Shown: positions 1 through 48,409 of the stretch, piece by piece
Layout: the number at the start of each line of letters is the position of its first letter
Numbering within the stretch: the stretch's first letter is position 1
Source of the DNA: Psammoneis japonica
Taxonomy: Eukaryota
DNA: 64,000 bases
Assembly (NCBI GenBank): GCA_008632985.1
Contig: QPGO01000020.1
Span: 558,001 to 622,000 of the forward strand
Direction: 5' to 3'
Notes under the pieces: generated by a model
Seen by the model: the letters and a program-made list of their open reading frames with translations, nothing else
The model's database searches: none
What the model was told of the DNA's origin: nothing
Program-made: the position numbers and the translations under genes

Positions 1-73
1 AGACTGCACAGAGATCCCGAAGGAGCTCATTGCAGCACAGCACAAGGTCACTCTTTGTCTGGACAGCCTCAAG

Positions 74-3000
74 GTGAATGGATTGCCATTCCTCACCACA
101 GTGTCACGAAACATTTTTCATCGCACGGCACAACCGCTCAAGGACTTGACCCAACCAACTCATCAAGAAGCTCTGGAAGATGTGCTGCGAGTCTACAACA
201 AGGCCGATTTGAAGGTCACACGCATTCATTGCGACAACGAATTCAGGCCCATTGGGAATGCACTAGAAGACAAGTTTGATCTCAAGGTGAGCTGCGCAAA
301 TGCTCAGGAGCATGTCCCACAAGCCGAAAGAAACAACCGAGTTATTCAAGAACGTGCCAGGGCAGTCTGTCATCAGCTGCCATTCAAGCATCTGCCAAAA
401 CTCATGGTCGAAGTCATGGTCACCGAAGCTGCTAAGAAGCTCAATTGTTTTCCAGCCAAGCACGGCGTTTCCAAACATTGCAGTCCAAGAATGATTCTCC
501 ATCAAAAGAATCTAGACTGTGACAAGAGCTGCAAGATCACGTTCGGCACTTGTGTGCAAGCTCACAACGACCCGGACCCCAAGAACACCCAAGAGTCACG
601 GACCTTAGATTGCATTTGTTTGCACCCCACTGACAGCAACCAGATTGGACATGAGTTGCTGCACTTGCAAACCGGCAAGAAGATCACTCATCGCAAGGTC
701 ACCCCTGTGCCCATCACTCCCGCCATCATGAAGCAGGTTCATCGTTTGGCTGAAATGAACAAGATGCCCAACGGTCTCAAGATTCAGAGCCGCACTGGAG
801 CTGTTTTGTATGACAGTGCTTGGCTTGCAGGAGTGGATTATGATGAAGATCAATTTGAAGACGAAGGTTGTGATCTAGAAGAAGACATTGAAGGCTGAAG
901 ACGATGAGGAAGAAGAGCTAGACTGGGGAGACTATGACAGAGTTAGTCAAGAAGAGCTGCAAGACACAATTCGGGAACAAGAATTGGATGAAGAAGCCAG
1001 CTGCATCAGTTAACAACAAGACGAGACTCAAGAAGAAACCTCCAATGATGAGCATCTCGGAGACAATGACGAAGTTGGTTCTCAACCATCAGACGGCAGC
1101 GGAATCTCACAAGAAATCGATGACATGATTGACCACATTGATGAACAACAGAGGCTGGAACAAGAGAAGGAACACTCTCCGGAAGTGCAAGAGATCATCG
1201 ACGAAATGAAAGACCTGGAATCTGATGACGAATCTGGAGAGGAGCAGAGTGAAACCAAAGAAAGTGTCCAAGAAGAGCCTGTTGCTACATCCAGGGCAGG
1301 AAGGACTCTCAAACCTCCAGTTAGATTGGGAGACTGCCAATGCCATCTGCAGACTCAAGCCCATTCACAAGAAGAAGCGTGCAGCTTGGAGACGGCCAGA
1401 ATCATGGCCATGACAATGTGCCAGTGGAACGAAAAGGTTAGCATGATTTCCACTGATGAAGAAGCACACCAATTTATTCAGACTTGCAGCTTGGCACGAG
1501 GACTCCAGAAGTTTGGAGAAGAAGGCCACAAGTCGGCAGTGTTAGAGCTGAAGCAAATCCATGACAGAGTGGTTTTCAAACCCATTCACATCAAGGACAT
1601 GACTCCACTGGAGAGGAAGAGAGCCATGGAGAGCCTCATGTTTCTCACAGAGAAGAGAGATGGACGAATCAAGTCAAGGTTGTGTGCAAACGGAAGCACG
1701 CAACGAGAGTGCATGGACCGAGATGAAACCGCCAGTCCGACAGCATCAACAGAATCCATTCTCATTGCAGGAGTGATCAATGCCAAGCAAGGCAGAGACG
1801 TCATGACGGCAGACATTCCAAACGCATTTGTGCAAACGGACATCGAGGTCAAGGATGAAAAGATCATCATGAAGATCCGTGGAAGGATGGTGGACATGTT
1901 GCTGGAATTGGATCCAGACACTTGCCAGGACTGCGTCGTGTGCGAAGGCAAACACAAGGTTCTCTACGTTGAAATGTTGAAGGCACTCTACGGAATGCTG
2001 GTGTCTTCCATTCTTTGTCACAAGAAGTTCCGCAGAGACATCGAAGGAATCGGATTTGAGATTTGATCCTTGTGATCCATGTGTCGCCAACCACATCGTG
2101 AATGGAAAACAACACACGGTGACATGGCATGTGGATGATTTGAAGTCCAGCCACGTTGACAGCAAGGTCAATGATGAATTCAAGATTTGGTTGGACAAAA
2201 CTCATGCGGATGAGATCGGAAAGGTCAAAGTCACGCGTGGAAAGAGGCATGACTGTCTAGCCATGACTCTAGATCACTCCATTCCAGGAGCATTGCAAGT
2301 TGACATGGTGCTTTGTGTGCAAGAAATGGTCAAGGAATTCTTCAAGAAATTCCCAGAAGAATTGTCGGGTGACGTGGATTGCCCGTGGAGCGAGAAGCTC
2401 AACAAGGTGGATGAGACAGCCAAGAAATTAGATCTCAAGCATGCTCAAGCATTTTGCACTTTTGTGATGAAGGGCATGTTTGTGTGCAAGAGAGCCAGAC
2501 AGGACATTCAGCCTGGCATTGCTTTTCTCTCTACCAGGGTCAAGGATCCGAATGAATCGGACTGGCCAAAGCTGGTAAGGCTCATGAATTTCCTCAAGAC
2601 AACCCAGCTTGATGTCGCAGTCATGTCGGCTGGAGACAAAGTTGTCATCGAGTGGCACACGGATGCCGCATTTGCAGTCCATCCGGACCATAAAAGTCAC
2701 ACAGGTTCTGCCATGACCCTTGGAAAAGGTGTCATTACATCAGTCAGCACGAAGCAGAAGATCAACACCAGGAGTTCTACGGAAGCAGAGATCGCCGCAG
2801 GAGACGATGTTTTGGCAAAGGTCCTTTGGACCAAGCGTTTCATTGAAGCTCAAGGTTTTGAAGTCGAGCGTAACATCATGCATCGAGACAATCAAAGTTG
2901 CATGAAACTAGAACAAAATGGAAAGGCCAGCTCGGGCAAACGCACGAGGCATTTCAACATCAAGCATTTTTACATCACCGACCTCATCAAGCGAGGAGAA

Positions 3001-3255
3001 CTTGAGATCAAGTTCTGCCCAACAGACAAGATGATGGCAGATTACATGACCAAACCAGTGGTTGGTAAAAAGTTCATTACTGATCGTCAAGCCATCATGA
3101 ACATCCAAGTGCCTAAGATGGTCAAATTTGGAAATGGCAAGAATCTTGTCATTGGTCAGCAGGAGTGTGTTGGAAATGGTGAATTAAAAGTTCAAACACC
3201 GAAATTAGATAGCGCGAAGAAGACGTATGCGTCAGCGCTCATGTGCTCTACGTGA
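74..3255 (+). pseudogene. pol: copia pol (IN-RT-RNase H), frameshifted near 895 and 2060, many Tyr->Cys/His changes
   Basis: ORFs 74-898, 1125-2066 and 2056-3255 carry successive pol motifs in different frames. Confidence 0.92.
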
Positions 3256-3405
3256 GGCACTGAAACTGCCGATGAAAGCAGTCATTATTCTCTTTTAACT
3301 CTTAGAAAGTATTGTGATAACAAGCTTGTCTATTTTAGCCTCAGGATCAGACCTTAGAGGACTGAGGTGGCTCTGAAATAGTCACCAGAAGGATAAATTA
3401 CAACA
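3168..3405 (+). repeat. 3' LTR of the first copia element
   Basis: Starts TGTTG after CAGCAGGAGTG (polypurine tract, PPT) and ends CAACA, giving a terminal inverted repeat. The partner LTR is outside the window. Confidence 0.7.
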
Positions 3406-4876
3406 CCCCGTGCCGCTCATAAGTCGCCTCTCTAGTCTCTAGCCGACGGTAGCTACAGTGCTGTAGAGCGGGTCTCTCTAGTGACAGAGGAGGTTAGCGC
3501 CACCTCTGATTATTAACATCGAAAGGATCTCGATGCGTCTTGGAAAGCTGACATTTGTCCTTCATTTTAGTCCATCGTAAACTGCTTCAAAATCATTCAA
3601 GAGAACTTTGGTTTTACGTAGCTACGTGTACAGTAGGACCCTGCTATTCTTATGGCTGCCCAACTCGCTTTCATGCACCAACTAACTAGATTGTTAAAGT
3701 GCCGCTAAATGAACCACCAGTGCAGACTACGGGCTCCCTCGAAACGGTATCCCTCGATCGAAGCGAGTCCGGCTCTGACCATTGCTCCCGCAACAAGCCT
3801 TTATGCACTTGCCTTTAGCCTGACGGCACGGAACAAGTCGCCGTCATACAGAATGAACTGTGCATTTCATTTCCACCCCTCTCTCTTTGGGCCACTGGCA
3901 GGAACACACAGTTCGTGGCATCTTCCTCCTTGATTTCGGTTCCCTTCTTATTCGCCTCGCTCGTTCGCTAACTAGATAGGACTCTTATAAGCAAAAACTT
4001 GCGAGTTCTAAATTGAGAAAGCTCTGCTTATAGACTGCCCTGGCCATTCAGAGATGGAGTTCGTGTAAATCTCGTCATCCAGCGGGTGCCCAGAACCTTG
4101 AAACATCCCGGCCAAAAATTGCTGATTTGAACCAGTGCATAGGAATGAGAATTTTGTTTACCAGACTCGTTTGACGTCCCCAATATGCCATTCTCCAGAG
4201 GAAAAACGCAAGCAAGCCGGTCATCTTATCCGTTCGGCTCTCTCAACCAAGTCAGGACCGAGAGTGACACAGTCGGAGTTCAAGTTGTAAGCGCGAAGGA
4301 AAACAACACAGATCTGCCTTGGTATTTTCTTCTGCAGCCACTTTTGGTGATGCCGTTTAAGTCCATGTAGGCTGAGCAAGTCAAAGTCGCATGTCAGCTG
4401 GGAGTTGATGATGCATTGCAGGTTCGCCATGTTTCGTTCGTTCGAGAGAGAGAGAAACGCAATGCATGCCAACGTGAGACAGACTCTCGGCTGACTTTTA
4501 TCAGACATTTCTTCATCATCCTCGCCCTCCGTCTTGCATGGAGAAGGACAACAACAGCGAAAGAAATCCCAAATCGACTTGGGGTAGCACATGGTTGTAA
4601 TTGGCTTATGCATTATTACTTTTGTGTGAATAAGCGCAAACTCCAAAACTCCACGATGCGAGAAGCGCCCCAACAATGCAAATACCGGCACTGCTACTAG
4701 CTACTCTCCAGCTAGCTAGAGAGCTAGATTGTCTAGACCATAGTATTCACTATTTACCGTACAGTGTGGTCCATCTGGAACTTGGCAATTCCCTCTCGAC
4801 TGAGGGCAATTCCCTCGCTACTGATTCAATATCTACAAGTGGTTATGGAAAGCTTTTACCTGCTCTGCAAACTCAT

Positions 4877-5902
4877 TCACAATTCTTCTTTCACTTTCTT
4901 CTCGTCCGAAGCGAAAAAGGGAATACGGCGACCGAGCTGCTTCTTGGTACCCTTTAGGATCTGCGCCCAATCAAGAGTTTTCTCCTTTGGCAAGGACTCC
5001 AAGTAGCTATCCGTATCTGGCTGGCCCAAAAGAAACTTTTCCCCGAGAGAAAGTGGCTTTGGATAAAAGAGATTGTAGAAACGCGTGAGAAGAGCAATAA
5101 CGAACGTTTCTATTGATCAAGCATGCTACTTACAGCAAAATGCGTACACATTCCATGTTGTATGTCGCACGTGGACAAGACCACCGGTGGGTTACCATTC
5201 TCACCGTGTTCCGCCACATACTTTCGCATCTTGGGGACAATCTAATTATCATAAGACCGACGTGACACGTGATTAGAAATCAAGAAAGACCGTGCGCCAA
5301 TAATGGCGTCAGTATCACAACCAGTCCAAGAGAAAAAGCAAAACGCTTACCTTATAGGACGCGACTACAGCAGACATGAAGCCATTGGTAAAAGGAAATT
5401 GTACAATTGCAGCCTTCACTGTGGGAAAAGACGTGGTTTCGTACGGCAAGAGGGGAATGAGATCGTCCACAGCTGTATCCTTCTGCTGTTCAATCGTAAG
5501 AACCACTGGCTTGTTGAGTCCGACAAGCTTCTTTTGCAAATCAGCATCCGGAGAGAGAATACCAGCGGCAAAGCGCTGGCGACTTCCACCCATTCGTGAT
5601 GGATCATCCAAGTAGATGTTGTACAGCTTATCCTGAAAATCCCTGGAATGAATATCGGCATCCTCGGCAATACCTCGCTGAAGGGCCATGGCCGCTGCAG
5701 AATCACGAGAGGTGTACTTGTAGATGAATTTGCCTCCACGAAACTCTCCTTCTTCAATCTCAACACCCTGAAGTACTCCAGAGGTAAACACAGAGTGCAG
5801 AAAAAAGACAGCCATGACGGTACAGATAATGAGGTACTGTTTCCGTCGCTGAGGCGAATCCCGAGGTTCGTTCATGGTCAATTCATGGTAGTTCATCAAC
5901 AT
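4877..5902 (-). CDS. TEX264-like GyrI-domain membrane protein, 3 exons, predicted C-terminal KEEL
   Basis: N-terminal TM helix and motifs YNIYLDDP, RFAAGIL and QFPFTNGFMSAVVASYK. GT donor at ~5350. Downstream exons IVPKMRKY..THFA and PLSLGEKFLLGQPD. One apparent frameshift near 4980 may be an assembly indel. Confidence 0.7.
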
Positions 5903-6229
5903 GATTGAAAAAATGAATTTCTTTGCTCGTGTAAGTCAAAACAAAATATATGCAAGATACTGGAAGAATGGAACAACCGAACACAACTCTCCAAACACAG
6001 GCTACTAATACTGTATCGTTCCTCTCTCGACTTTACTGGAGATGGCTGTCAAGGAAACTACAGCAGCAAACAACAAACTTCCAAACTGAAAACTGGAAAC
6101 GCATCAAATCATCATCCGCCCGACGACAAAACAAAATAATATGCAATTATCGGAGTTGAATGTCTATATTTGAGGGAAAATGCCGGTACCGCTCGCTCGA
6201 TGATGCGATGACTCACTCATCACATCATT

Positions 6230-9200
6230 TACGCACGCAATCATGGGCCATGGTTGGGGATGCAACACAGCGCCTTGTCGTGGAGACGACGAGTGGTTTT
6301 TCAAAGACTTGTTGCCCATGCCTCATGCCTGCGGCCTGGATCACTGCGACAGTCCAGCGCAACTGGCTGGCCTCTTGAGGATCCAAAGACTCTCATCATC
6401 AGAATCATCGCCATCAGAGTTTTCTCGCACACCGGCACTTTCTGGCTGGCTCTCAAGCTTCCTGGTGGTGTCGCTGAAGACCATGTCAAGGCCACAAGCA
6501 GTCATTTGGTGCTGCATGAAAAAGATGCATGGAATGACCATGGCTTCAGAAGCAACAAAGGCTGGCGGTTCTTGAAAAAAAAGGTTGCTGCTGATTTCTG
6601 TTTGGTGACCAAATGAGCCACAGACTGTGCGCTGGCAATGATGGAGCTTGGTCACACTGCAATCTGTTGATTGGATGGCAGCAAGGTCAGTGCAAGAATC
6701 ACAGCAGTGCAGCAGCCAAGAATCACAAGAAAACTGGGGCCACTTCTTCTCAGGCATGGAACTCAACATGGCGCAGCTTGAAGCTGTCAGTGTGTCCAAC
6801 TTGATGCACCGTTGAGAAAACTGTAAAGCTCATGCAATGCTGCTTGTGCACGGGCACAAAGTGCTGCAGCTGCTGGCTGGCTTGAAGTGTTTCTTGCTCT
6901 CAATCTTGGAAAGTGCTGTTGCAGCAAAAGACATGCAAGCTCCAGCTGCTTTCCGACGGTCGTTTGAGCTGACACACCCGCCCAATGTTTCAATGGCACA
7001 GGATTTGGTTGCAAAAGAGGATTGTTTGCATGTCATTGACTGAGCTTTCTTCTGTTGGACTTGCTCTCAACAACTTGCTTGTTCTTTTCTTTGAAGAACT
7101 TCATCAGCTGTTGAAAGGTGTTTTGAAGCAGCAAGAAAGCCTCTGCCCCATGCCCCATGTTCATTTTGATTTGGGTGTTGGGCATGCTTGCACATGTCCA
7201 AGACAAACAAGCTGCAATCAGAGTTGCTTGAGAGACACACTCCAGGCAGCATGCTTGGCATTGGAGCAACAGCGGTCATTTGAGATGGCTGCCAGTGATC
7301 ACAACTGAAGCTTTGAAGATTCCCCATCTGAGCTGGTGGTTTGTCTCACAGTGACACCACTCAATTGGTCTTGATGGCACACATGGCTTGAGGTTGTCAT
7401 TTTCGACTTTGCCTCCAGTTGGCAGCTTTCCTCCACACAACATTGACAAGCTTGGCATGCAGTGCCAGAGGCACAAATCATGTTGGAAGAAGCCAAGTTG
7501 GTCATGTGGCAAATGACTGTCAAGACTCCGCACTCATCACCTCTCTGCAACCGGCCTCACTTGATGCTTGATGGACTGAATGCATGCATCATGCAAGCAC
7601 CAAGTCAGCATGAAATGCAGTGCAATGAAGGGCTGGTGTGGCAATGATCTCATTCATTCGAGAAAGAGCACGAGGTGACTTGACAACGCTTTGCATCAAA
7701 AACAGCAGCTGGCTGCTGATGAAGCCACTGTGAAATGCCCAGTCCCAAGATTTTTGACAGGATTGGAACAGGATTTAGGTGCGCGCAAAATGTCGTGCGC
7801 TGTTCAGTTTACCGTGCACAGTTTTGTGTGCTTCAGTTCCGCGCGTTCGCGCGCTGTGCAGTTTGCTTTCGAGCCACAAGGCTCACAAGAATGACAACAG
7901 CAGCCCGATCACACCGACTCACACGTCTTTCGGCTCCTGCAACGGTCTCTGAGTGGAGACTCATCTGCCATTTAGACAGCAGCAAGGAGTTGTTGTTTGA
8001 ATTCTTGCCATTTGCCTTCAATTTCTGTCAGATTGACAGTCTTGCTCATTGTCAACCCATTGAGCAACCGCCATCGTCGTCGTTGATTTGCCGACGATGC
8101 CGTTTCAATTCTGCGTGGACCTCCGTGTGTGTTCTACGTACATCGGCAAGTCTGCGCGCATTCAATGCCAGGCATCGGCAGGAAGTTAACGTCACCGTCA
8201 AGTCTCCTCACCGCTGGACATCTGGGCTGATCATGCCACCTTTTGTCGCTAAAGACACACATTCAATTTTGGACAATGCTGCTGTTGCCTCCAGCTTGGA
8301 CACATGTCCAACAAGCAGATGCTGCCTCAGCTGCTTCATTCGTCATCAGCTGCATTTGACAAACAGTGGTTGGCTGCGCCAACTGGTTTGTTTGCTCATT
8401 CAAAAGTGAGAGACAGACAGACAGAGACAGCCACAACAACCAGTGTCATGACCAACATCACAGCCAAGCCAACAGCAGGCACACCCACACAAGCATGGCA
8501 CCTTTCTTTCTTGCCACTTGCAATGCACAAAGTCATCTCTCAGAATGGGGGTGGCTGAAGTCTCAAAGAGAAGTGTGAGTCACAAAGCATGACTCTGCAA
8601 GATGGCTGCAATCACAAATGAGTCAAACAGATCTTCAAACACTGTGGGATGTGGAGAAGAACACATCTGGTTGAAATTGGGGCTGATGACCCACAGAGGA
8701 GCATTGAACCCACTGGAGGGTTTTCAAATGTGAGAGACACTCAAAGAGCCACTCAAGTTGTCTGAAAGCACCTTGCAACTTTCATGAAAAAGGCTTTTTC
8801 CATCATGCACATCATCTTGGCCCAATGCTCAGACAACACAAGCACTCAAAAAGTGCGTTAGCTGGCAACTCAACAACTGCTCCATTTGACCTGTGCAAGC
8901 ATTCAATGCACATGCAAAAAGTGAATTTGCTGGCTGTGGCAGTGTGACCCCATCAGAGCCATGGGCCACTTTGAAAGGCAGTGGTTGTTTTTGATGTGTT
9001 CCAACAGCCTCAGGTGGGAGCTTGCAGTGCTGGGGTGTGACACAAACATTTTTTTGCAATGTGCTGCATGTCAAGCATGTGCACTGTGCATTTTTTAGTG
9101 GGCTCTTCCACAGAATTGCTCTGCACTCCCTGCTTTTCAAAGCCTGGTGATCATTGGTGCATTCATCACCTGACAATTTGCTGTGGAGCTTGCACGCAGA

Positions 9201-9734
9201 ATTTTTGCAGGCTCAGCAGCATCACAGCAGGAATTGCCACCCACCAGCACATCTGGGTCACATCATCGCACCTTGAGACAACTTCCAAAGACATGCGCAA
9301 CCAAGTGCACAGAGGAAAACAGGCCCACATGGCAATGGTGTGCCGACATCATTCAACAACTCAGCACTGGCAGAAGATCCAGCTTGCAACGAGAACAAGA
9401 TGATCAACTCACGGTGCCTTCAAAGCAACCATGGCAGCAAAGATGACGATGTGCTTCAAAGAGTCCAGTGGAAATTTTTGTGTCCTCCTTGCAACAAAAT
9501 GAGCGAACTGATTCAAACTTCACTTTTTCCCTGTGAACGGGATGACTTTCATAAAAGGACCTCACAAAAATGAGTGCAAAAATGGTGGTCATGCAGAGAT
9601 GATGCTGCAGTGTGCACAAGTGCCAAAGCCATGTCTCTTGTCTGCACAAAGCAGCAATGGCTCGGAGGCATTGCCCGCACCAGCAACAAGCACTTGCACC
9701 GGCAACAAGTGCGCACACCAGCAAAAAGCAGGCA
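6230..9734. repeat. TpA-depleted hypermutated repeat/TE remnant, family unidentified
   Basis: TA is nearly absent and TG/CA is abundant. Overlapping Cys/His/Gln-rich ORFs occur in all frames. Confidence 0.6.
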
Positions 9735-12493
9735 ATGAACTTGCCCCACCGGCATGTGTTTGATCCTGCTCTCCAGGCTTCTCTCTTTCGGTTTGGCTTC
9801 CCGGGCTGTAGGGTCGAATCGAGAACAGGCTGTGGAGAACACAAAGTACACTCTGAACTACAAAGTGCAACTTTAGCATGACACTGCATGTGCCATTGAT
9901 CCCACTTTATGCTTCTCTCCCTGAATTCGATTCCCTTGGCTACAACTAGGGTCGATTGCTTCCGTGACGCCAATCGGGAACGGGCCACAGCCAAAAACGC
10001 GAGGCTGTGGGCAGCATGCGGATCTAGCCTCTCTAGGCAGCAATGGTTGTGTTTGGCAATAAAAAGATTGTATTGGGATCCATTAATTTGAACGAGACGA
10101 TTGAAAAGCTGCATGAACAACAAAGTTCTGTGTTTGTTCTAGACGCCACAGAATGCTTTCCATCTTTTATTGCCACAGAGAGGAGCCGCCATCCTTCCTG
10201 GCGCATAGACAGAACCATTCCGTGACGCCAACACTCACCTCATTCTTTTCATTCTTCCACAATTCATTCTCCGCGTCCGAAACAAGCAAGGGCTTGGTTC
10301 ATTGACTGCCGCGGGTCTCGAGCAAATGCAGAGTCGTCATGTCGTTGAAGCACCAATCTTGCCTGGTGCACATTTTGTTCCGGAAAACACAAGTCGCGGG
10401 GTGGGACCCACTGTCACTTGAACCTTGGTATTTCAACAAAGACTGACTGCCGCATCGTTCAAGTCGGGTGGTTGAACCGGTGTGAGGGTGCATTTCTATG
10501 TCGACAAAATGAAGGGGAAAAGCAATGTCAGCAAACAAATCTCGAATGAAAAGCAAAATAGACACGAAATCGACTTACATTGGGGGTGCATTCGAATGTA
10601 GCGTAGCACAACGAGCGCACCCCATGGCATTTGAACTGCACGACAAACTCGTGCAATGTTGGCGAGTCTTTGATGCGCACAAAAGCTGCACTGCACCATG
10701 AAATGGAACCAAGAGATGCCCCCATGCATGCTCCATGTCCAAGAGTACAAAACAAGCAGTTAATGAGTCTAGCGGCGACTCATGATCCTTGCGGATCTAC
10801 ACACGACACACCCAGCATTAGACGAAAGAAAGACGCTGCCCGTTGCTCCACCGAGCCCAGGCAAGCGTCTCAAAGAGACAGGACGGGCTGCTTTCTCCTC
10901 GTTTCTCGCAGCAACAACAACAATGCCCACAGGATCGACGTTTTCGTCTGGAAACTCCGCGTTCTCCACGTCTTGATCCTCTCCTTCTGGCATGATGTCA
11001 TGTTGCACTAACCCATCGTCGACAGGATCCTCCGAATCATCCATCGGCATTTCCACGTCTGGTGGATCATTCAAGGCATCATCAGGCTCCTCGTCAGCTG
11101 CTGGAACGACTTCCCCCAAGGGTTCCGCTTCACCCTCTCCTTCTGGAACAATGTCATGTTGCAGCAACCCGACGCCCAAAGGATCCTCCGAATCGTCCAT
11201 CGGCACTTCCACGTCTGGTGGAGCATCCAAAGCATCGTCTGGCTCCTCACGCACTTCAACAACTGCATCCACCGGAACAACTTCCTCCTCGGCAACAGGA
11301 TCATCATCAAAAGCAATGGCAGGATCAGCAATGGGTTCCTCAACCACTGCAACTCCGAAAATGGCCTCGACCGGTTCAATTGCCGCTGGAGTCCGTACCC
11401 ATCCACGCCAGTGATCACATCTTGGGTGCGATTGACATCCATGAATGTACAGGTTTTGTTTCGAGTCAAACTCAAGCAGCGCCGCAGTCAACTGCTGATC
11501 ATTCAGGAGGGGAAGAACCCGAGTGTAACGTGGACGTCGAAGAACAGGTTTAGCAACCACGCCAGTTGGGATTGGAGGAAGGTCACCGACAAAGACATTC
11601 TTGATCAGGTCTTCATCCGGCAGCCATCCTAAAAGCCGCTGATGATGCTGCCGAGCCAGCTTGTCATGCTTCTCGTCGATTCGTCTCAATGCAACGTTCA
11701 ATGTCTGACCCGACAGCACTGGAATCTTGGTCGTGTGCTTTGGATGTCGAAGAACTTTTGGAGCAACCACGCCGGTTGGGACTGGAGGAGAGTCGCCAAC
11801 GACAATGCCTTGAACAAGCATTCGGTCCGGTCTCCATCTGATCCGACCGCTGCCACATGCTTTGCGCTTGGCGTCGTCAACAGCTGCTGCAGAATCGTCC
11901 AATGCTTCAGCCACAGGTTCCTTTACTGCGGCAACAGGAACGCCCACCTCCACATCGACTGGAGCATCGTCAACATCCACAGCAGGCTCGTTCAAGGCAT
12001 CCCAAGGATCAACAGTGTCATCAGCTTCAGGAGCTACATCCTCCACCGCAGTGGGATTGTTGCCCATGGCATCAGCTGGTTCAATGGCCGCTGGAGTCCG
12101 TTCCCATCCACGCCAGTGATCACATCTTAGGTGCGATTGACACTCACGAATGCATTGGTCCTGCTTCCATTCAAACTCACGCAGAGCTGCAGCCAATCGC
12201 TGTTCATCCAATGCGGGTGTTGCACGAGTGCATTGAGGGATCCGAAGTCCTCGCGGAGCAACCACGCCGGTTGGGACTGGAGGAGTGTCACCAACGTCAA
12301 TGCCTTGAACAAGCATTCGGTCCGGTCTCCATCTGATCCGACCGCGACAAAATGGCTCACGCTTCAAGAGCAGCAGCCATGGGGATAAAAATTGCAAGGG
12401 AACATATACGGCATAATGCATGGTCCATACAACCACTGCAACCGCAAGAATGGCCGCAACAGCATCGCACGCTCGATCATAAAGAAGAGTCGT

Positions 12494-12840
12494 TGTGGGA
12501 AAGTAGCCAGAATTCTAAGATTCGTCTGCACTTTCAGTGGTCAAAAGCTGCAATTGCGATACAACAATCAATCAGTAACTTTATTGTACCAAAAGTTGAG
12601 AGGTGATAATCAGTACGTTAGAAAGATTATGAGCAGTTTTTATGAGCAGATGCAGCTGCCATCTAAAGGAAACGCGAAGTTAAACAAGCGCGAAGCTAGG
12701 AACAAATATCGCATTCGTGACTCGGCTTCCGCGGGATTCGAGACTGAGCATCGCACACGGGGTTCGAATCTTGGATCTCTGATTGGAATCGTGGAGGTCC
12801 GATGTTGTTGTAAAAACATGCAAATATGAATATTGTCACA
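12494..12840 (-). repeat. 3' LTR (largely unmutated)
   Basis: Direct repeat of 18655-19001. Preceded on the minus strand by PPT TTGAAGGGAG (12841-12850). Confidence 0.95.
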
Positions 12841-12883
12841 CTCCCTTCAACAATGTCGGGTGGAATGATGACTCGAAAACGTC

Positions 12884-15800
12884 TTACCACTTAAGGAGCG
12901 ATTTCCTGTGTTTAACGAAGAGATTCTGTGGTAGAGGTTTGGTGAAAATGTCTGCAATCTGATCCGCCGTATCAATTGGTAGGATTGATATGAGACCTTT
13001 GCGAACATGGTCTTTAAAGTGGTGGAGAGTGAGGTTGAAGTGTTTTGTCCGAGGACGCATCTTAGGCAATCTCGCGATCTCCAATGCTCCAGAATTGTCT
13101 TCAAAAGCCTTACAATGTACGACTGGTGTCTTGGAAGGGACATTATGACCGTGATCCATAAATTCTTGAATGAGGTTCATAATTGGGATGGTGCTTCGAA
13201 GACTTTCCGAAAGAGCGATAAATTCAGCTTCAGTAGTGCTGAGCGCGATCTGAGTCTGTAGCTTGGACGTCCAGACAATCGGACATCCTGCATAGGTGAT
13301 GACAAACCCAGTTCGAGATTTGGAAGTGCCGACGTCATTGGGTGCAGTCAGCTTATTCCAATTGCCCACAAAGTCCGCGTCGGCGTGAACTTCAAGGGAC
13401 TTGTCCGTTGAGGGCTGTAGTATAATACCTTCAGTTCTGGTTGACCTTAGGTACTTACAGAGCCATAGTACGGCTTCACCGTGAGAAACCTTGGGATCGG
13501 AAGAAAAGCGTGCGACTTGGTGCACCGCGTAAGCGATATCCGGTCGAGTGCTCTTCTCCAGAAAATTGAGCTTGCCGATGATGGATCGGTAATGAAAGCT
13601 CCCTTGGAAAGCAGGCTCACTCATATGCCTGTGGAGGATCTTGGAGGAAGGAGCAGGAGTAGACTTATCTGGTAGTCTCTTTGGAATATTGGCCATCTCC
13701 AGTATCTGATTGATAAGGTGAGGTTGGGTAAGTTTCATTCTGCCGTCTGGTAGTGTCTCGACGTTGACACCGAGATAGTCGTCCAGAGTGCCTTGATCAT
13801 CAATATCAAACTTCTCATCTCTGATATCCTGTATCGCCTTGTCAATAGCAGACTTGTCAGGGGATGCAAAGATACCGTCATCGACATAATGAATGAAAAT
13901 GACATTGCCACGAAAATACAGGCACTCATCAACTGCCGATTGTACGAAACCAATCCTTAACAATCCATCACGTAAGTGTTCTTGCCATACTCTCCCTGCT
14001 TGCTTTTGTCCATATAAGTTCTTGAGCAACTTCAGAACATGAGTCTTACCATTGCCATATCTTGTTTCAATTCCTGCAGGTAACTCCATGTACATATCAT
14101 ATTCGATATCGGCATGCGGATACGCCAGAACGAAGTCGACTTGGCGTGTATGCCACTTCTTAAGAATGGCAATGATCAGTAGGAGCCGGATAGTGAACCA
14201 GAAGACCACGGCAGAGTAGGTCTGGAAGTAGTTGACAGCATACTCTTGCTTTCCACCGTGCACATTAAGTCGGGACTTCCATTTGTAGACGGCTTGGGTC
14301 TTAATATCTCTTTTGCGCTTCATAGACCATACCGAAGGGAGAACATCAACATCGTCAGGTACGTCCTCTCTTGGAATGAGTATCCAATGTTTCCTTTCAA
14401 TATGATCATTGACTTCCTTAACACAGGCCTTGATAAATTCGTCTCTGTCAGGTTCACGCATAGCCTGATCAAAGTACATGGTGTCGGGGTCCGAGCTCGC
14501 CAGAAAAGAGATAGGTGAGTCCATATCGTCCTGCAGTTTGTAATCATCCTCGTGCATCGCATCATAATATGCCTCTGCCTCTGCATTGTAGGAGACAATG
14601 CCTTGAGCCCGTTGTAGTTGGCTCTCGCGCATCCTTTCGGTCGGGCGTCGTTGTCGGCCGGACCTACTGGTATTGGGTTGACCCATAGTGCGCTGTGGCT
14701 CAGATGGTGCGTCTGAATCATCTGGAGGTGTGTATAGCATTTCATCATCCGGTTGGGCATTGTCAAATGAGTCATCAGTGGTAGACGTATCAGTAGGATG
14801 CAGCAGCTGAGACGGGATATCCGAATTCGGCTCAGGTGGTTCCGTTGTGGTAGGGACTGATCCCTCAACCGGTACGTCACTTGATTTCCCAAAGATGTTG
14901 AAAGTACTCCTTGTCTTGAGTTGTCTGAAACCTGTAATGCCTTGCCATTGTGAGAATGTAGGAGGATTCCCAGCAGATGGACGAACAGTCTCAAAGAAGT
15001 CGTCAAATTGTACGTGAAATTGCGGCGATACGAGTCCGGTCTGCAAATTCAAAACCAAGGTAACTGAACCTGCGTGTCTTGTTGATGGTCCCAAATTGAT
15101 TCCTAACCTTGCCCTTGGGTCCCACTTAGGCAGCCTACCTCCTCCCTGCAACCGGTTGTGCAAGGCGTAGACGGGACAGCCGAAGGTATGGTGTTGTTTG
15201 AGATTAGGCTGGACCTTAACGGACGAGAAACGTTCCAGCGGAGAAGAGCCGTCCTCGTGATTCGGTAAGTGATTCTTGATCTCGTTTGAGTTCCTGAGAG
15301 CGCTTGGCCATAAGTTCAACTCAATAGCCGTTGGCCATCTCACTTTTGCATGCAGGAGTTGCTTCCGAGATTGCTCTTGGAGGTCCCTTATTCTTTTCTC
15401 CGCGATGCCGTTTTGGAAGTGGGCGTTGACCCCACAATAGGATATTGTTTGCTGTTGCTTCTTGACGTCTTGTATGAAAGCATTATCAGCGAATCTTCCA
15501 TTGTCGGCGTGGTAGTGTTGAATACGGACGTGCATCCGGCGTGCGAATGCCTCGAAAGCGTGCTTGGCTTCGAGCGTTTCGGCTGAGGTAAGTCCTTTCT
15601 GCAAATATATGTATCCCAATCCGCTGAAATGATCAACAAAAATTGTCGCTGCTCGATACCTTTGCTTCGTAGGTCTCCCTTTGAGCTGTGGGATCAATCC
15701 AGGAGTAGGACTCTCGAGCTGGTCGACGGATACGGCTTCTCCAGGCGAAGTTGCCAAGTGGATTCGTCGGTTCCGCTTGGACTTGGAGCGCCATGGTCGT

Positions 15801-17074
15801 TTCGTCATGGCACCGTATAGGCAGCCGGCACATTTTGGGTTGTGTACCTTTGTAAGGCGTTTCGGTAGAATGCCTAGGGCGGCCAATAGCTTTATCATTT
15901 TGAATGACATGTGGCCCAGGCGGTAATGCCAACGCAATAGTTCACCCTGGTCATCTGTGGCAGCAAGGGCGTCATCATTTGGTGTGATGTTGATGGGTTC
16001 CGGAAAGTCCTGCTGTGCCTCCGGTGTCGTGAAATCCCTTAGGTTTTCCTCGTCTGAGTCTGAACGACTTGCTCCGTCTGTTGGCTCAAATGAGACAGGA
16101 GCATCCTCATCAGCAGTGTTGCGTGCGTCTTGCGTCTCGGAAGGACGTGTCTCGGATGGACTTCTGAAGACGTCTGTATCAATTGCAGCCTCGTCATCAT
16201 TCGCAACACTCTCGTCGTCTGGTGGTATGATGTGAGCTTGACAGGCCACGTGCTCGATAGTTTCGATGTCGGTTTGTTCTTCGACAGCGGCTGCAAAGGT
16301 CCGGCATTTGTTGGAACCGGGTGCGGAGCGCATCTTGGCGACGTTAGAGTTGGCGGACCATGGAATCAGGCGATGGCACTTGCGCTGGTCCCACATCAGC
16401 AACAGTCCGTCGTCCCCAGTCCAAGATGCGGTTCCGTGAGGCTCTGGCGTGTGGTCATTGGCTTGCTGGCTCCATTGCTGCGGGCAGAGAAGACAATGAG
16501 GTAAGTCCGGTACGAGCAGCGCGTCTCGAATTTTGATGCTGTGCACTCGTCCCATGTCGTCCTCAATTGCCCACTGCACTGTTCCTTCTCCCTCAGCACG
16601 CAAGCAGCCCTTGACACCGAGTGCCACTTTGTTGGATTTGCGAAGAGGACCAATGAAGTGTGCCTCGTCGTTGGACATGGTGCAGGAAGAATGTGAGTCG
16701 ACACCGATTGCGAATGAGTCCGAATCGTAAGTGGGCTCCGTTCGCTCGGGACGGCATGGTGTGGTTGAGTTGTGCGCTCTAACCGTCTTGTGTCGCGCAA
16801 TGACACAGCGAGCCTTCTTGGTGGCCACTCTGGAGCGGTGACCTGGCCTCGTCGACGCATGACACCGTGCGCAGCACCTCGTCGTTGGCCGTCGCTGGTG
16901 AGTCTTAACTCGTCTTGTGCACTTTTCTGAAGGAAGGGACAGCATCACGAATGGCAGTGTGATCCAGATCGGTGCTGCACATTTCATGACGCCAGCGACC
17001 GCTGTCAGGAGCACTGACACAGTGACGGCTGTCTGCAAGGACAGCAGCAGTGTCAGAGTGAACCTGCAGAGCAG
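12884..17074 (-). CDS. pol: copia Pol polyprotein (protease, GAG-pre-integrase, integrase, RT, RNase H)
   Basis: Uninterrupted 1384-aa ORF with motifs IGVDSHSS, WHYRLGH..CAGC, SVDQ..ADNG..QNGIAE, LYGQKQAG, HYVDD, ADADF and ADIFTKPL. Confidence 0.95.
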   Translation of the reverse strand: MLCRFTLTLLLSLQTAVTVSVLLTAVAGVMKCAAPIWITLPFVMLSLPSEKCTRRVKTHQRRPTTRCCARCHASTRPGHRSRVATKKARCVIARHKTVRAHNSTTPCRPERTEPTYDSDSFAIGVDSHSSCTMSNDEAHFIGPLRKSNKVALGVKGCLRAEGEGTVQWAIEDDMGRVHSIKIRDALLVPDLPHCLLCPQQWSQQANDHTPEPHGTASWTGDDGLLLMWDQRKCHRLIPWSANSNVAKMRSAPGSNKCRTFAAAVEEQTDIETIEHVACQAHIIPPDDESVANDDEAAIDTDVFRSPSETRPSETQDARNTADEDAPVSFEPTDGASRSDSDEENLRDFTTPEAQQDFPEPINITPNDDALAATDDQGELLRWHYRLGHMSFKMIKLLAALGILPKRLTKVHNPKCAGCLYGAMTKRPWRSKSKRNRRIHLATSPGEAVSVDQLESPTPGLIPQLKGRPTKQRYRAATIFVDHFSGLGYIYLQKGLTSAETLEAKHAFEAFARRMHVRIQHYHADNGRFADNAFIQDVKKQQQTISYCGVNAHFQNGIAEKRIRDLQEQSRKQLLHAKVRWPTAIELNLWPSALRNSNEIKNHLPNHEDGSSPLERFSSVKVQPNLKQHHTFGCPVYALHNRLQGGGRLPKWDPRARLGINLGPSTRHAGSVTLVLNLQTGLVSPQFHVQFDDFFETVRPSAGNPPTFSQWQGITGFRQLKTRSTFNIFGKSSDVPVEGSVPTTTEPPEPNSDIPSQLLHPTDTSTTDDSFDNAQPDDEMLYTPPDDSDAPSEPQRTMGQPNTSRSGRQRRPTERMRESQLQRAQGIVSYNAEAEAYYDAMHEDDYKLQDDMDSPISFLASSDPDTMYFDQAMREPDRDEFIKACVKEVNDHIERKHWILIPREDVPDDVDVLPSVWSMKRKRDIKTQAVYKWKSRLNVHGGKQEYAVNYFQTYSAVVFWFTIRLLLIIAILKKWHTRQVDFVLAYPHADIEYDMYMELPAGIETRYGNGKTHVLKLLKNLYGQKQAGRVWQEHLRDGLLRIGFVQSAVDECLYFRGNVIFIHYVDDGIFASPDKSAIDKAIQDIRDEKFDIDDQGTLDDYLGVNVETLPDGRMKLTQPHLINQILEMANIPKRLPDKSTPAPSSKILHRHMSEPAFQGSFHYRSIIGKLNFLEKSTRPDIAYAVHQVARFSSDPKVSHGEAVLWLCKYLRSTRTEGIILQPSTDKSLEVHADADFVGNWNKLTAPNDVGTSKSRTGFVITYAGCPIVWTSKLQTQIALSTTEAEFIALSESLRSTIPIMNLIQEFMDHGHNVPSKTPVVHCKAFEDNSGALEIARLPKMRPRTKHFNLTLHHFKDHVRKGLISILPIDTADQIADIFTKPLPQNLFVKHRKSLLKW

Positions 17075-18580
17075 TCACTCTTGATCCACTTCGTTTGGGA
17101 TGGCAGAGATGGCACTTGCGAAGGAGACTTTCTTGTCCGACGTGTCTGTGGATGGAGCAGACTGTTGCTTGCGGAGTCTACAGCCTTGGTTGCCCGGATC
17201 ATCAGGCAAGTGCATGACCCAAGCAGTGTGACATGGGCACCAGTGACAGTCGCGATTGTTGACGCGCTTGTGATGGCACTGATGACCGTTCACTGTCTTC
17301 TCAGGAGCGTCCTCCTTGGGCGGGACTTTCTTCCAGGCTTCGTCCGCTTTCTGTCTCTGACGTGGAGTGGTCTTGGTCTTCCTTGACCGTGTGCTTCTTT
17401 CCTTGGTTGAACCAGCCTTGGCCTTCAAAGCTTTAGATGGCTGAAGGTTCTGATCCTTGATGGAGTCTACCTTGGCTGCAAGCGCGACGATTTGCTCTTC
17501 AGCCGGTGATGGTGCTCCCCACTTCTTCTCGCGCTTGAGGTCAGCACATTTGTTCAGTGCCAACGTCATGATTTGCGTCGGCGTGAATTCCTCACCGTCG
17601 TCGCACCTGTCCTTGTGCAACATGATGTGCTTGACGAATGCTTCGTCAGCAGCTGCGGCGCATCCTTTGAACAGATTCATGATGAGGTCGTCGCACTGCT
17701 CTCCTCTAGCTTGGAGTCCGTCAACGTTGAGCTTGGCATGCTTGTTGAACTCTTCGATGTCCGAGTTGACAGCCGCCATGCAGGTGTCCAGGCTTGACAA
17801 GTTCTCGCGGAAGCAGTTGGTGGCAGAGCGTGTGTCAACGATGGCCTTTTGCGCAAGCAGCTTGAAGAATGGTGTGCCGATTTGATTTCCATTGATCGTG
17901 TGGGAATCTGTCTCAGCCAATGTCTTGTCTCTTGCTTCCTCCGCAAGGGATTGAGAGATCGCCTCGGCCATCTGCACATTGTTCTGTGCTTGTCGCGCAG
18001 GCAGATTCGCGAAGGTGTTCGCGTGGGTTCTAACATCCTGCAGAGTGAGCAGTCCGCACTCGGAGATGAGATCTCGTGGAGTTCCATTCACGTCGGGAAT
18101 GGCAAGCATGTCTCCTGCCCCTGTTTTCCATCCTGCCTCGGCAGCTCGTTGACCGAGTGTCTCACAAAACCGTTTGAGACCTTCTGAATCGCCGTTGAAC
18201 TCGTGCGGCAGCGGTGCAGCAGCGGCGTTCCAAAGCTTGAGGCCTTGCGATGTGCCGCAGTCAATGAAGTTGTTGGGACGGTGTTGACCTGGAGTCAACG
18301 CGAAGATCGGCAGTGGCGGCACAGGCGCCAATGGTGGTCCACCTGGCGGGACTCCACCTGGTGGGACTCCACCTCCGCCTCCTCCTCCACCTCCTCCGCC
18401 ACCTCCTCCTGGAGGCACACCGGGAGGAACGACTGGGGGAGGTGCAGGAGCAACTGGAGCGGCTGCAGGAGCAGGTGCTGTTGCCGGAGCAGCAGCAGTG
18501 GCAGGAGCTGCAGCGGGTGCAGCAGCGGGAGCTGCAACAGAGGCAGCTGGAGCAGCCGCGGTTCATGTCTGCGTGACCAC
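17075..18580 (-). pseudogene. gag: copia Gag with Ala/Pro- and Gly-rich N-terminus, start codon lost, no Tyr left
   Basis: Motifs FALTPG, NSDIEEFN, KKWGAPS and zinc-finger-like HWCPCHTAWVMH. The frame extends upstream to GTG GTC ACG CAG ACA TGA at 18580. Confidence 0.85.
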
Positions 18581-18641
18581 AGCAACAGCAGAGTAAAGCA
18601 GAATCGAGAGCTCAAGATCGATTGACTCAACTTGTAGATTT

Positions 18642-18654
18642 CGCAGAGGAAGCG
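18642..18654 (-). promoter_or_regulatory. Putative primer-binding site complementary to the D-arm of initiator tRNA-Met
   Basis: CGCTTCCTCTGCG abuts the 5' LTR. Its complement CGCAGAGGAAGCG resembles the eukaryotic tRNAi D-arm GCGCAGNGGAAGCG. Confidence 0.6.
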
Positions 18655-19001
18655 TGTGGGAAAGTGGCCAGAATTCTAAGATTCGTCTGCACTTTCAGTG
18701 ACCAAAAGCTGCAACTGCGATGCAACAATCAATCAGTGACTTCATTGTGCCAAAAGTTGAGAGGTGACAATCAGTGCGTTAGAAAGATTGTGAGCAGTTT
18801 TTGTGAGCAGATGCAGCTGCCATCTAAAGGAAACGCGAAGTTGAACAAGCGCGAAGCTGGGGACAAATGTCGCACTCGTGACTCGGCTTCCGCGGGATTC
18901 GAGACTGAGCATCGCACACGGGGTTCGAATCTTGGATCTCTGATTGGAATCGTGGAGGTCCGATGTTGTTGTAAAAACATGCAAATGTGAACATTGTCAC
19001 A
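18655..19001 (-). repeat. 5' LTR (hypermutated)
   Basis: Direct repeat of 12494-12840 with 19 transitions. Confidence 0.95.
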
Positions 19002-25581: not shown

Positions 25582-27040
25582 AGGGCACAGTCATGCTGCC
25601 ACTTTAGAATGCTGCAGTGTCAGCACTCGAGTTATCTCTCTGTTGGTGTATAGTGTGTTTGCTGTTGGTTCAAATATACCGTATTGCTTCTTCTGCTCTT
25701 GGAAGCGACGGTAGTACATCATTGGTGATTGATGTTGCGTTGCTTTTGTTTCGCGGATCGGAGGGAAGGAAATCTTGGAGTTCGGAGCTCGTCCTAGCAG
25801 TTGTGATGACTTGGGCTGACGTCATCGGGGTTCGCATACAAGATCTTTTTTACACAAAATATGATAGTAAAAGAAGCCGTTGGCTTTCCCGCCACATTTT
25901 CGAAAATTTTGAAACGGCAAGCCCGGACGGACAAGCAGTTCCGAATCACTTTGCTCATTGTTGCACGAAGCACACAAAAAATCTCCATTTGACCTTTTGA
26001 AACACATCACTCTCTTGATCGCCATGGTTGCGTCAGTTCTCTGCTAAAGGTGAGTCGATCGTCTCGTTCTCGTTGCGAATTAGATCTGCTGGAGTTAAGT
26101 CATTGAATGTCGTCCGCACACGATTACCATGTAGACCTGAAGGCTTGGGTCCTTGACGGTTTTCCTCTGTGCGTTTGATTGCGTATATCTTTGGAAGTCG
26201 GTTCGAGGCGAAATGACGATTGCCTGTCAAAGTAGTCCGTGGTTCCGACGGAGATACACCACGATTGCCAGCAAACTCGCTTCTTGCGTGTGCGCTGAAT
26301 GCTTGTAAACGTCCAATACGGCAGTAACCCGGTGCCAACCAACGCACTTTTTAGTGCAACGGTTGTTTAAGCAGGAACCATATGAGGGCCAGCCTCTGCT
26401 TTCTTTTTTTGAACGCACGCTGAACGCCTGTAGACGTCGTGGACTAAGACGGTGTGCTTGATAACCCCGAAGGGCAGCCTTTTTCGTGAAGGTTGTAAGG
26501 TGGTTCAGACCGCTTGAGTTGCTCATTGAGCATCTCATATCTGATCCCCCGTAGGTTTAATACTCCTATGGGTCGCCGGCCCGTTATATCAGCTATATTC
26601 TCCACGTCCCACAGCGTTTGAAGATCTGTTTTGTTGCGTTTGCGATTGTGACCGTCTCGCTGAGTTATACTTTGTAACTCACACTCTTTTTTCAGATTTT
26701 GATTTCTATTTGGACAGACGATACAGTATGAATGGAGATATGCAGCTATTTATTATTTACAAGGTTATCAATTGCTGGTCCATGTTGACGATCGTACGGC
26801 TGCAGTGTTGTCATGGCTCTCTCTAGAGTCCTACCCGTACGAAGAAAGCGTGCTATCTCCGTCTCTCAGCGATTCCTTCCGGAAGCATGAGCAGAACTCA
26901 AAGCTGTCACATGTATCGAGAAGGATATCCAAATATCCTTGTTATAGCAACATGCCGGCTGAAGTGCTCCGTCAAGCGCCATCCGAATATCAATTGTATC
27001 TACCTTCAAGCTTCATATCGAGTCCAACAAGGCGAATCAC

Positions 27041-36600: not shown

Positions 36601-36786
36601 CTAATGCGTATCCTTGCAGAGCAAAAAACAATGTAAAAAAGGAATAGCCGAAGCATTCTTGTCACATGATTATTTCAATCCGCTAAGGGGGTGATGTAAG
36701 CTACTGGTACAAAAGGTGGTCCTTATTACGTTGAACTATTTCTATTTTCATTGCTACTCTGTGGCTGTTCTAAAAAGAGAGGCAGA

Positions 36787-38041: not shown

Positions 38042-38439
38042 GGTCCCGAGGTATGTTGCGAAGAAAAAAAATTGTGACAACTTTCATCTGGGTGTCAATG
38101 ATGAGTCGAATTTTGGTACTGATGTCACGTAGAATTTACGCGTGGCGTCGGAGGGAGTTTCTGGTGCGGCGCGTCACGAGTCGCGTGACGTCACGAACAC
38201 ACGACTGAATGACGAACCGCCAATCAATCACGAGTGATTGGGAACGACCGCAAGACGACAACACCAAAAATGGCACGCACGCCTATTGCCACAAAGTGAA
38301 GATGCTCGAGAAGTGGTTTGTTTCAGGATTCAAAAGTAAAGAGGCGATGATCGGGGAGACCTACCATGATCGAGAGTAGCTCAACCATTCTCTTATCTCT
38401 AATGTTCATTATTCTTCTAACATTTCTCTAAATAAGGGC

Positions 38440-46779: not shown

Positions 46780-46845
46780 CCCCCCCCCCCCCACACACAC
46801 ACACACACACACACACAGCAGAGGAAGAAGAGGAGGAGGAGGATG
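46780..46845 (+). repeat. poly-C, (CA)n and (GAG)n microsatellite
   Basis: Directly visible simple repeats. Confidence 0.9.
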
Positions 46846-47106
46846 AACGTGATGACAATCCCTCTTCTTGCAAAATGTTCCCTGGCACTCTTGTCACTTC
46901 TTTGTCCTCTGATCCGGACAAGTCTTCTGAAGAACTCACCCCACCCCCAGATCCACCCACTGTCCCTCCCACCACTGCCGACTCAGGTCCCTTGGACATG
47001 GAGGCACCTGATCCACCAACCTTTTCACTCATGGAGGAAGCTTGGTTGGAGCTGACAATGCTCTGCAACAACTCCAGCACCACTGGTCAATTTTGCGGGC
47101 AGCTGC

Positions 47107-48243: not shown

Positions 48244-48409
48244 ATGTGATGGGTCACTGTCGCATCCCATGTTTGTGGCTAATTTGTGGATCTCAAGATT
48301 CAAATTTGGTGCAAGTGAGTGCATTGCACACATGCAAAGCAAGGTGTTGTGGGCACTGCAATGGCTTTGTTGTCATTGCAGACACTGCAGCCAACCAAAC
48401 AAACCACAC

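Follow-up and report, generated by a model that had tools for sequence, protein, structure and literature searches.

Loss of TpA dinucleotides and of conserved tyrosines in a degenerate copia-type retrotransposon and neighboring domains of the Psammoneis japonica genome

Permanent mutation of invading DNA at the level of the genome is known from fungi, as repeat-induced point mutation (RIP), and from animals, as APOBEC and ADAR editing. An A-to-G process specific to 5'-TA-3' (TpA) dinucleotides was first reported in a 2026 preprint (Mettrop et al., bioRxiv 10.64898/2026.01.13.699255), which describes it for viruses integrated in the genome of a single alga, Bigelowiella natans. A closely similar signature is found in 64,000 nucleotides of the Psammoneis japonica genome (assembly GCA_008632985.1, contig QPGO01000020.1, positions 558,001 to 622,000), hereafter the window, to which all coordinates refer. 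The window opens with a TpA-poor element at 1-3110. With high probability, this segment is the internal part of a dead Ty1/copia-type long terminal repeat (LTR) retrotransposon in which a dinucleotide-specific process acting on the chromosome turned most 5'-TA-3' into TG or CA.

Of the 231 mutations that mutation-accumulation lines of this alga showed in two integrated viral regions, 230 were A to G or T to C, all of the GC-biased mutations being assigned to TpA by the preprint. The targets named there are integrated nucleocytoplasmic large DNA virus (NCLDV) and virophage DNA, mutated at rates about 1000-fold over background, and ADAT2 is proposed as the candidate enzyme (bioRxiv 10.64898/2026.01.13.699255). 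The same text counts 124 TpA-poor clusters, rich in CpA and TpG, in the ~95-Mb genome; among TpA-poor coding sequences, reverse-transcriptase and DDE domains are enriched, while most of the depleted open reading frames (ORFs) carry no recognizable annotation (bioRxiv 10.64898/2026.01.13.699255). In the part of the literature covered by our search, TpA to TpG/CpA hypermutation is reported only in this preprint. Term searches of the accessible text of Maumus et al. (2009; PMC2806351) and of a 2025 preprint on diatom transposable elements returned no mention of TpA hypermutation.

The P. japonica locus agrees with every testable feature of the B. natans report. Shared between the two are the change of TpA to TpG or CpA only, chromosomal DNA as the substrate and the confinement to domains. 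The targets differ: integrated viruses are hit in B. natans, whereas the proven targets here are LTR retrotransposons and a 3.4-kb duplicate. The extent differs as well, with ~45% of a 64-kb window affected here against 124 clusters in ~95 Mb there. Background TpA is ~4.8% here and 6.0% in B. natans, and the host ORFs of the window seem intron-poor; with the wider extent, these are weak hints of a distinct genome that is affected more heavily. Ongoing activity was measured in B. natans, while here the process is known from sequence comparison alone.

The element at 1-3110 contains 34 TpA sites, giving an observed/expected ratio of 0.17, with TG at 1.47 and CA at 1.54; in the flank at 3411-6000 the TpA ratio is 0.65. 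As a control, the pol gene in the TpA-normal part of a second copia element of the window was used. TpA is low in all three codon phases of the element (7, 10 and 14 sites, compared with 29, 43 and 66 in the control), and its ATA and GTA codons number 0 and 1, compared with 10 and 11. About three quarters of the TpA of the element has been lost. Low TpA is not native to this pol family: in 80 metagenomic loci encoding relatives (41-63% identical), the homologous pol segment has a median ratio of 0.63 (standard deviation 0.13, minimum 0.35), and the window segment 2065-3120, at 0.21, lies below all 80. The parts of the element are as follows.

1-3110, plus strand: internal part of a degenerate Ty1/copia-type element; relatives found with tblastn and phmmer align from 2 to 3105-3126
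2-898, plus strand: integrase-like part; aligns ahead of the reverse transcriptase (RT) in the polyproteins of relatives (tblastn)
893-898, plus strand: frame break with one surplus base compared with other copies, then TGA; ORF 2-898 stops here, and 1 nt at 893 or 894 is missing from some X1 contigs
1011-1013, plus strand: TAA, in frame, within the acidic linker that joins integrase and RT, seen in the translation
1014-2063, plus strand: RT
2062-2066, plus strand: second frame break with one surplus base compared with other copies; three X1 contigs lack 1 nt at 2062, and the frame shifts between ORFs 1014-2066 and 1981-3255
2065-3110, plus strand: C-terminus of the RT with RNase H
3168-3405, plus strand: putative 3' LTR of 238 bp, TGTTG...CAACA, read from the sequence, with purine-rich AGCAGGAG before it; TpA observed/expected 0.77 (16 sites)

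The left end of the element extends past the start of the window, which contains no 5' LTR, and tblastn places the end of pol at ~3105-3126. In relative P0123 the alignments follow the order 138-424, then 501-791, then 792-1137, corresponding to 2-898, the RT and the C-terminal parts. An integrase before the RT is the Ty1/copia gene order, and this arrangement would assign the element to the Ty1/copia type as a whole and to no group within it. RVT_2 scores 30 bits on the element (E = 5e-7), just below the Pfam cut-off of 31.6, and 37-59 bits on full-length relatives, one of which also has a Gag zinc knuckle. A Pfam scan of 2-898 gave no rve match; D..E motifs read there by eye are what we take to be those of the integrase. 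Relatives numbering 31,981 came out of a full HMMER scan against 1.84 billion representatives; over the C-terminal 350 residues, the best of full length are 47-60% identical. The lineage is a divergent one, the element being 24% identical to the other copia of the window. With CoDi and other copia elements, as described by Maumus et al. (2009; PMC2806351), the element shares an integrase before the RT, a putative RVT_2-type RT, a candidate short TG..CA LTR and, in its relatives, the motifs NPYD.CV, H.YLGM and FG.YVQ.

Other copies of this family are present in the sample. The frame breaks at 893/894 and 2062 are not common to all of them, because some X1 contigs lack the surplus bases. Summed contig depth over the element, taken from the contigs of one run, reaches 1500-3300 compared with ~58 for single-copy DNA and peaks in the bin 2669-3335, which covers the start of the candidate LTR; this suggests ~25-55 copies at least 90% alike. 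The stretch 1-3335 is almost bare of contigs from X2, a run whose contigs look spliced, and no RNA run is listed among those containing the sequence.

The loss of TpA has left its mark on the protein. The sequence-only reading had listed seven motif strings in which Cys or His replaces residues that are normally Tyr in copia pol, and all seven are present in the translations of 2-898, 1014-2066 and 1981-3255. Aligning these three fragments with 46 full-length relatives (1100-2000 residues, none itself Tyr-poor) confirms the replacement for four of the sites and qualifies it for the others. The FGTC position is Tyr in 41 of 45 relatives, the DPC position of DPCDPCV in 38 of 46 and the RHDC position in 35 of 46, with Phe in 10 more; in ILCH a Tyr column (36 of 46) lies under the His, the Cys falling on a Trp/Phe column. 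None of the relatives has Cys or His at these four sites, contrary to what a native origin of the replacements would predict. Support is weak at QREC and at the first Cys of LDCDKSC, where Tyr is merely the commonest residue (13 of 46 and 15 of 44 relatives). The NIMH position is ambiguous: of 46 relatives, 19 have Tyr and 13 have His, so that His does occur natively there. The last Cys of LDCDKSC is itself native (Cys in 18 of 45), as is the His of HVDD in this lineage (26 of 46). The original list leaves out additional changes of Tyr to Cys/His, which lie at nt 1923, 2314 and 2965.

Counts were also taken over whole columns. Tyr reaches 60% or more of the 46 relatives at 13 columns, where the element has Cys five times, His twice, Phe three times and Tyr three times. 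When each relative is left out in turn and scored in the same way, Cys or His fills 15 of 596 cells and Tyr 479, with a maximum of 2 in 13 for any relative; the difference from the element has a Fisher p of 4e-8, with the relatives not being independent of each other. Conserved residues other than Tyr are retained at 192 of 267 columns, compared with 3 of 13 for Tyr (p = 5e-4), and 9 of the 30 Cys residues in covered columns fall where Tyr is the commonest residue in relatives. The control, aligned with 40 relatives of its own, keeps Tyr in 22 of 29 Tyr columns, with one His and no Cys. Tyr, Cys and His make up 0.7%, 3.3% and 4.2% of residues in the element and 2.9%, 0.9% and 4.1% in the control.

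The same signature recurs in public data. Among the first 30 relatives, 27 contain 2.4-4.7% Tyr, the low outliers being P0135, P0142 and P0147 (0.2-1.6%). Cys or His occupies half or more of the conserved Tyr columns in 5 of 119 evaluated rows of the pol family, namely P0135, P0164, P0197, P0215 and P0142, in which 6-9 of 8-13 such columns are affected and Tyr makes up 0-1.6% of residues. These five database relatives hint that the signature is common in environmental protists.

The direction and timing of the change can be read from two pairs of related sequences within the window, which involve the following features.

12494-19001, minus strand: second copia element, nearly intact (RVT_2 E = 9e-37, gag_pre-integrs, SH3_retrovirus, Pol_BBD), with target-site duplication GTCGT
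12494-12843 and 18655-19004 (as aligned), minus strand: LTRs of the second copia, from pairwise alignment
9735-12493 and 19007-19681, minus strand: duplicate copy A, edited and split by the second copia; its left part is 94.8% identical to 63516-60754
60078-63516, plus strand: duplicate copy B, unedited, with a 685-aa ORF of no Pfam family; 95% identical to copy A in alignment

The LTRs of one element are identical at insertion. Those of the second copia, whose empty-site joint (12487 to 19001) is found among the contigs, now differ at 20 of 350 sites. At 14 of these, the LTR at 12494 has TA where the LTR at 18655 has TG (11) or CA (3), and the reverse is never seen; the two LTRs contain 18 and 4 TpA, respectively, and 18 of the 20 differences are A to G or T to C. 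Because the pair diverged in one direction after insertion, the process must act on chromosomal DNA after integration. Outside TpA there are six differences, of which four show A to G or T to C with the same orientation as the rest and may reflect low-level off-target activity.

The duplicate pair tells the same story on a larger scale. Copy B has 154 TpA and copy A 61. Among 169 substitutions, 92 are TA in copy B and TG (45) or CA (47) in copy A, with two in reverse; of the 151-152 TpA tallied in copy B, these 92 are converted in copy A, none at both bases. Changes of A to G or T to C outside TpA are rare (1/247, 3/291, 3/225, 1/268, 5/211 and 5/214), 57 other non-CpG substitutions are spread across both directions, and CpG-type changes stand at 12 vs 6. 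TG and CA outcomes follow each other at random along the pair (45 runs, 47 expected), so that many independent hits are indicated and not one processive event on a single strand. Each site is hit once, and both strands are affected. Since the twin copy at 95% identity is untouched, location and not homology decides what is targeted. A third pair, 8558-9514 and 25943-26699 (73% identical), shows 19 TpA-type and 31 CpG-type directional changes among 194 and is too diverged to be clean. The claim that TA is the ancestral state, lost to TG and CA, is thus borne out by the LTRs (14 to 0), by the duplicates (92 to 2) and by the relatives with Tyr and normal TpA. The process converts A:T to G:C, is confined to TpA, acts on both strands equally and independently, and does so after integration.

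Two observations concern transcripts and repeats at these features. The unit with the 685-aa ORF, at 60424-62481 (plus strand) and 10769-12514 (minus strand), contains internal repeats of 122 bp and 230 bp and matches no Pfam family; X2 depth is ~600 at the coordinates of the edited copy (10769-12514), to which contigs of the near-identical unedited copy would map as well. Over 13971-18211 (plus strand), X2 contigs skip stretches of 70-113 nt that are mostly bounded by GT..AG, and they look like multiply spliced RNA antisense to the ORF of the second copia. Sense-antisense RNA could therefore exist over this element.

Target choice depends on the base that follows the adenine. Conversion per target adenine is 0.43 before C, 0.41 before T, 0.22 before G and 0.11 before A; 5'-TAY (Y being C or T) is preferred and TAA is largely spared. 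Among the TpA that survive in edited blocks, TTAA is enriched 4.6-fold and CTAA/TTAG 3.4-fold, while ATAT, ATAC and GTAC are nearly absent. The 34 survivors of the element at 1-3110 follow the same rule, since 15 lack TAY on either strand and one has it on both, compared with 196 and 409 of 1233 in the background (p = 3e-6). This shared bias ties the depletion of the element to the same process.

The rule also bears on the damage seen in the protein. In a TAY codon, A to G on the sense strand yields Cys and A to G on the other strand His; ATA (Ile) becomes Met. With TAY preferred, tyrosine codons are prime targets, and Cys outnumbers His. Such editing creates no stop codons and erases TAA and TAG. 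The codons through which it damages proteins are those for Tyr, for Ile (ATA), for Val (GTA) and for Leu (CTA/TTA).

The element at 1-3110 is one of six TpA-poor blocks that together make up ~29 of the 64 kb, ~45% of the window. The others, and a flank with partial loss, are listed here; none is assigned to a strand.

6231-12386: TpA-depleted domain comprising a repeat without recognized family (6231-9734) and the left part of copy A; TpA observed/expected 0.09 and 0.21
15940-19420: TpA-depleted domain that spans, in the second copia, the gag/protease half and one LTR, plus the adjoining flank, from the dinucleotide scan
29007-36601: the most heavily depleted domain, CpG-poor, with 187-bp tandem repeats at 34270-35184; TpA 0.05, CpG 0.14, TG 1.84, CA 1.80
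42819-51516: TpA-depleted domain of no recognizable origin; TpA 0.07, CpG 0.37
3688-4104: flank with partial TpA loss compared with another contig of the same sample; of 17 listed differences, 13 are TG/CA in the window and TA in the contig, one is the reverse and three are of other kinds

What is hit are bounded domains of 3-9 kb, and neither whole elements nor all homologous copies. The ends are sharp within ~100 bp (3114|3185, 6230, 12386, 15938, ~19420, 29006, 36602, 42818 and 51517), and of the second copia only the half from ~15940 to its right end is depleted. The sequence-only reading had proposed that editing fades at the edge of the first element. The candidate LTR does have normal TpA (0.77), as that reading held, but the return is abrupt (3114 to 3185) and weaker editing continues beyond the LTR, at 3688-4104, where copies or alleles in the sample may differ in their edit state; the contig comparison there is a partial view, drawn from 40 of 469 rows of differences. 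The most depleted blocks are also CpG-poor (0.14-0.41), as expected for long-methylated repeats, while the milder blocks are near normal in CpG. TpA loss is therefore the faster of the two processes, in keeping with the small CpG-type imbalance between the duplicates.

Little in these blocks can be assigned to known families. Pfam families were found in none of 11 ORFs at 6000-10000 and none of 28 at 29007-36601, and none of 34 ORFs at 42819-51516 comes near its cut-off (best E 0.007, 16 bits against 25). Searches with tblastn using 10 copia relatives matched the two copia elements and nothing else in the window, which also contains no Rfam family and no tRNA. The two blocks at 29007-36601 (7.6 kb) and 42819-51516 (8.7 kb), with TpA at 0.05-0.07 and little CpG, are open in all six frames. 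Within the block at 6231-12386, summed contig depth over 7338-8671 rises to 50,000-130,000, compared with ~58 for single-copy DNA, and the only contigs of X3, which are short, lie at 7755-7968. Such figures indicate that a repeat of very high copy number lies within TpA-depleted DNA; no Pfam, Rfam or tandem-repeat match was found for it.

Known mutators resemble this process in part. RIP, as found in ascomycetes, is likewise specific to a dinucleotide, restricted to transitions, irreversible, aimed at repeats in the genome and fairly sharp in its limits. However, RIP changes C to T, mainly at CpA, and so creates TpA and stop codons, whereas both are destroyed here; it mutates both copies of a duplicate, whereas here one copy is affected (92 to 2); and its changes cluster by strand in each event, whereas here the strands are intermixed. 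The gain of TpA at CpA and the mutation of both copies are thus absent from this locus. ADAR and APOBEC3 also disable retroelements through deaminase-type transitions, and ADAR prefers a 5' U. These enzymes target RNA, or a single strand of cDNA, ahead of integration and leave a strand-asymmetric pattern, in contrast to the intermixed, post-integration TG 45/CA 47 seen here; moreover, APOBEC produces C to T and not A to G/T to C. ADAR favors a 3' G and fits poorly, because the preference at the following base here is for C and T over G, and for G over A. Measured by its defining features, each of the models (RIP, APOBEC, ADAR) falls short in one or more.

Three general causes were also considered and rejected. 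GC-biased gene conversion is not dinucleotide-specific, and deamination of 5-methylcytosine as the sole cause accounts for the loss of CpG and not for that of TpA. Eukaryotic N6-methyladenine lies at ApT, and mutation linked to it is set aside on the grounds that AT is not depleted in the window.

A TadA- or ADAT2-like enzyme offers a closer parallel. TadA naturally acts on U33-A34-C35 in tRNA-Arg, and YAC is the preferred context of the early base editors developed from TadA. The target adenine of TadA/ADAT2 follows U or T and, in tRNA-Arg(ACG), precedes C, which the TAY motif resembles. Deamination of adenine in DNA by ADAT2 has reportedly been found in amphioxus (PMC10354150, also cited in the B. 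natans preprint). In the mechanism suggested here, adenine in DNA would be deaminated to hypoxanthine, which the following round of replication would treat as G. A TadA/ADAT2-like enzyme may be responsible, as judged from the sequence motif, and by analogy with the model proposed for B. natans it could be guided to the chromatin of silenced repeats or of foreign DNA in defense of the genome.

For the element at 1-3110 itself, we infer editing in place from its neighbors and from the symmetric excess of TG and CA, and several observations weigh against this. That TpA returns so abruptly where the internal region meets the LTR (3114 to 3185) also fits hypermutation before integration, on RNA or cDNA as ADAR or APOBEC do to retroviruses, or descent from an already mutated master copy, and the many similar copies implied by contig depth (~25-55, at least 90% alike, from 1500-3300 against ~58) favor such an origin too. 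It is nevertheless improbable. Editing of one strand gives either TG or CA, yet TG (1.47) and CA (1.54) are each in excess, and Tyr has changed to His as well as to Cys; the same signature arose after integration elsewhere in the window, in the LTR pair and the duplicates, and the flank beyond the LTR is partly edited as well. An active master is unlikely given the loss of 7 of 13 conserved Tyr, two frame breaks and a stop, and copy number is not decisive, because copies edited separately from one another would remain over 90% alike. At the protein level, the contrast between TpA-type and other changes is mixed. Of 85 amino-acid differences from the family consensus, 74 are not TpA-type and 11 are, and the excess per mismatch over the control is not significant (11/85 vs 4/84, p = 0.10); per conserved column it is (11/280 vs 4/603, p = 0.001). 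The comparison with the consensus is dominated by old lineage divergence, because the relatives are at most 60% identical.

Two further explanations carry less weight still than an origin before integration. Low TpA and rare Tyr might be native to the copia lineage concerned, owing to its codon usage or to selection that disfavors TpA, which would suit a window where TpA is under-represented throughout (0.40, and ~0.65 in unedited parts) and the natural His of many relatives at the NIMH and HVDD sites. This is very improbable, since none of the 80 relatives' DNA segments falls below a TpA ratio of 0.35, relatives keep Tyr in 479 of 596 cells at conserved columns, and the depletion is equal in all three codon phases of a copy that is broken. 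Least probable of all is an artifact of sequencing, base-calling or assembly, such as modified adenines in repeat chromatin misread as G. Here it counts against editing that the single run containing the sequence may be the source of the assembly and so no independent check on an artifact, and that the single-base indels at 893 and 2062 vary between contigs. On the other side, 1103 X1 contigs match 1-20000 at 99% identity or more with a single-copy depth of ~58, the TG/CA states lie in sharp-ended blocks of several kilobases accompanied by CpG decay, and the B. natans preprint reports the same spectrum from mutation-accumulation lines sequenced by Illumina NovaSeq.

Post-integration editing of TpA in chromosomal domains makes this locus a real instance of what is probably a mutational genome defense, an interpretation supported by the comparisons above. 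Beyond the B. natans account, it adds proof internal to the sequence that LTR retrotransposons are hit after insertion (14 one-way changes of TA to TG/CA), together with the 3' neighbor rule TAY, which points to a TadA/ADAT-like enzyme. Also added are a targeting by place and not by homology that spares a 95%-identical copy, domain ends sharp within ~100 bp that cut through an element, and CpG decay. A broader proposal is more tentative, and we place it slightly short of an even chance: that this genome, from a lineage distinct from Bigelowiella, relies for its routine defense on an enzyme that deaminates adenine in DNA, prefers 5'-TAY much as TadA would and is targeted to chromatin domains, nearly half of this repeat-rich region having been rewritten. 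If true, A-to-G 'anti-RIP' would be a widespread eukaryotic defense against transposons and not the curiosity of one alga.

The process also has consequences for annotation. Because TAA, TAG and their complements contain TpA, edited DNA becomes open in every one of the six frames; ~21 kb of it contains 73 stretches of 100 codons or more that are free of stops. Gene finders will call spurious, family-less proteins in such DNA, and dating by sequence identity will overestimate the age of edited LTR elements.

A host-like gene lies between two of the edited blocks, at 38440-40773 (minus strand). It encodes Big_7/PKD, DUF5010 and CBM35/CBM6 domains and is broken up into three frames that overlap, through short introns or indels. 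It is adjoined by a mitochondrial carrier gene (37400-38083) and by a metallophosphoesterase-like ORF (41267-42118), and all three lie in TpA-normal DNA.

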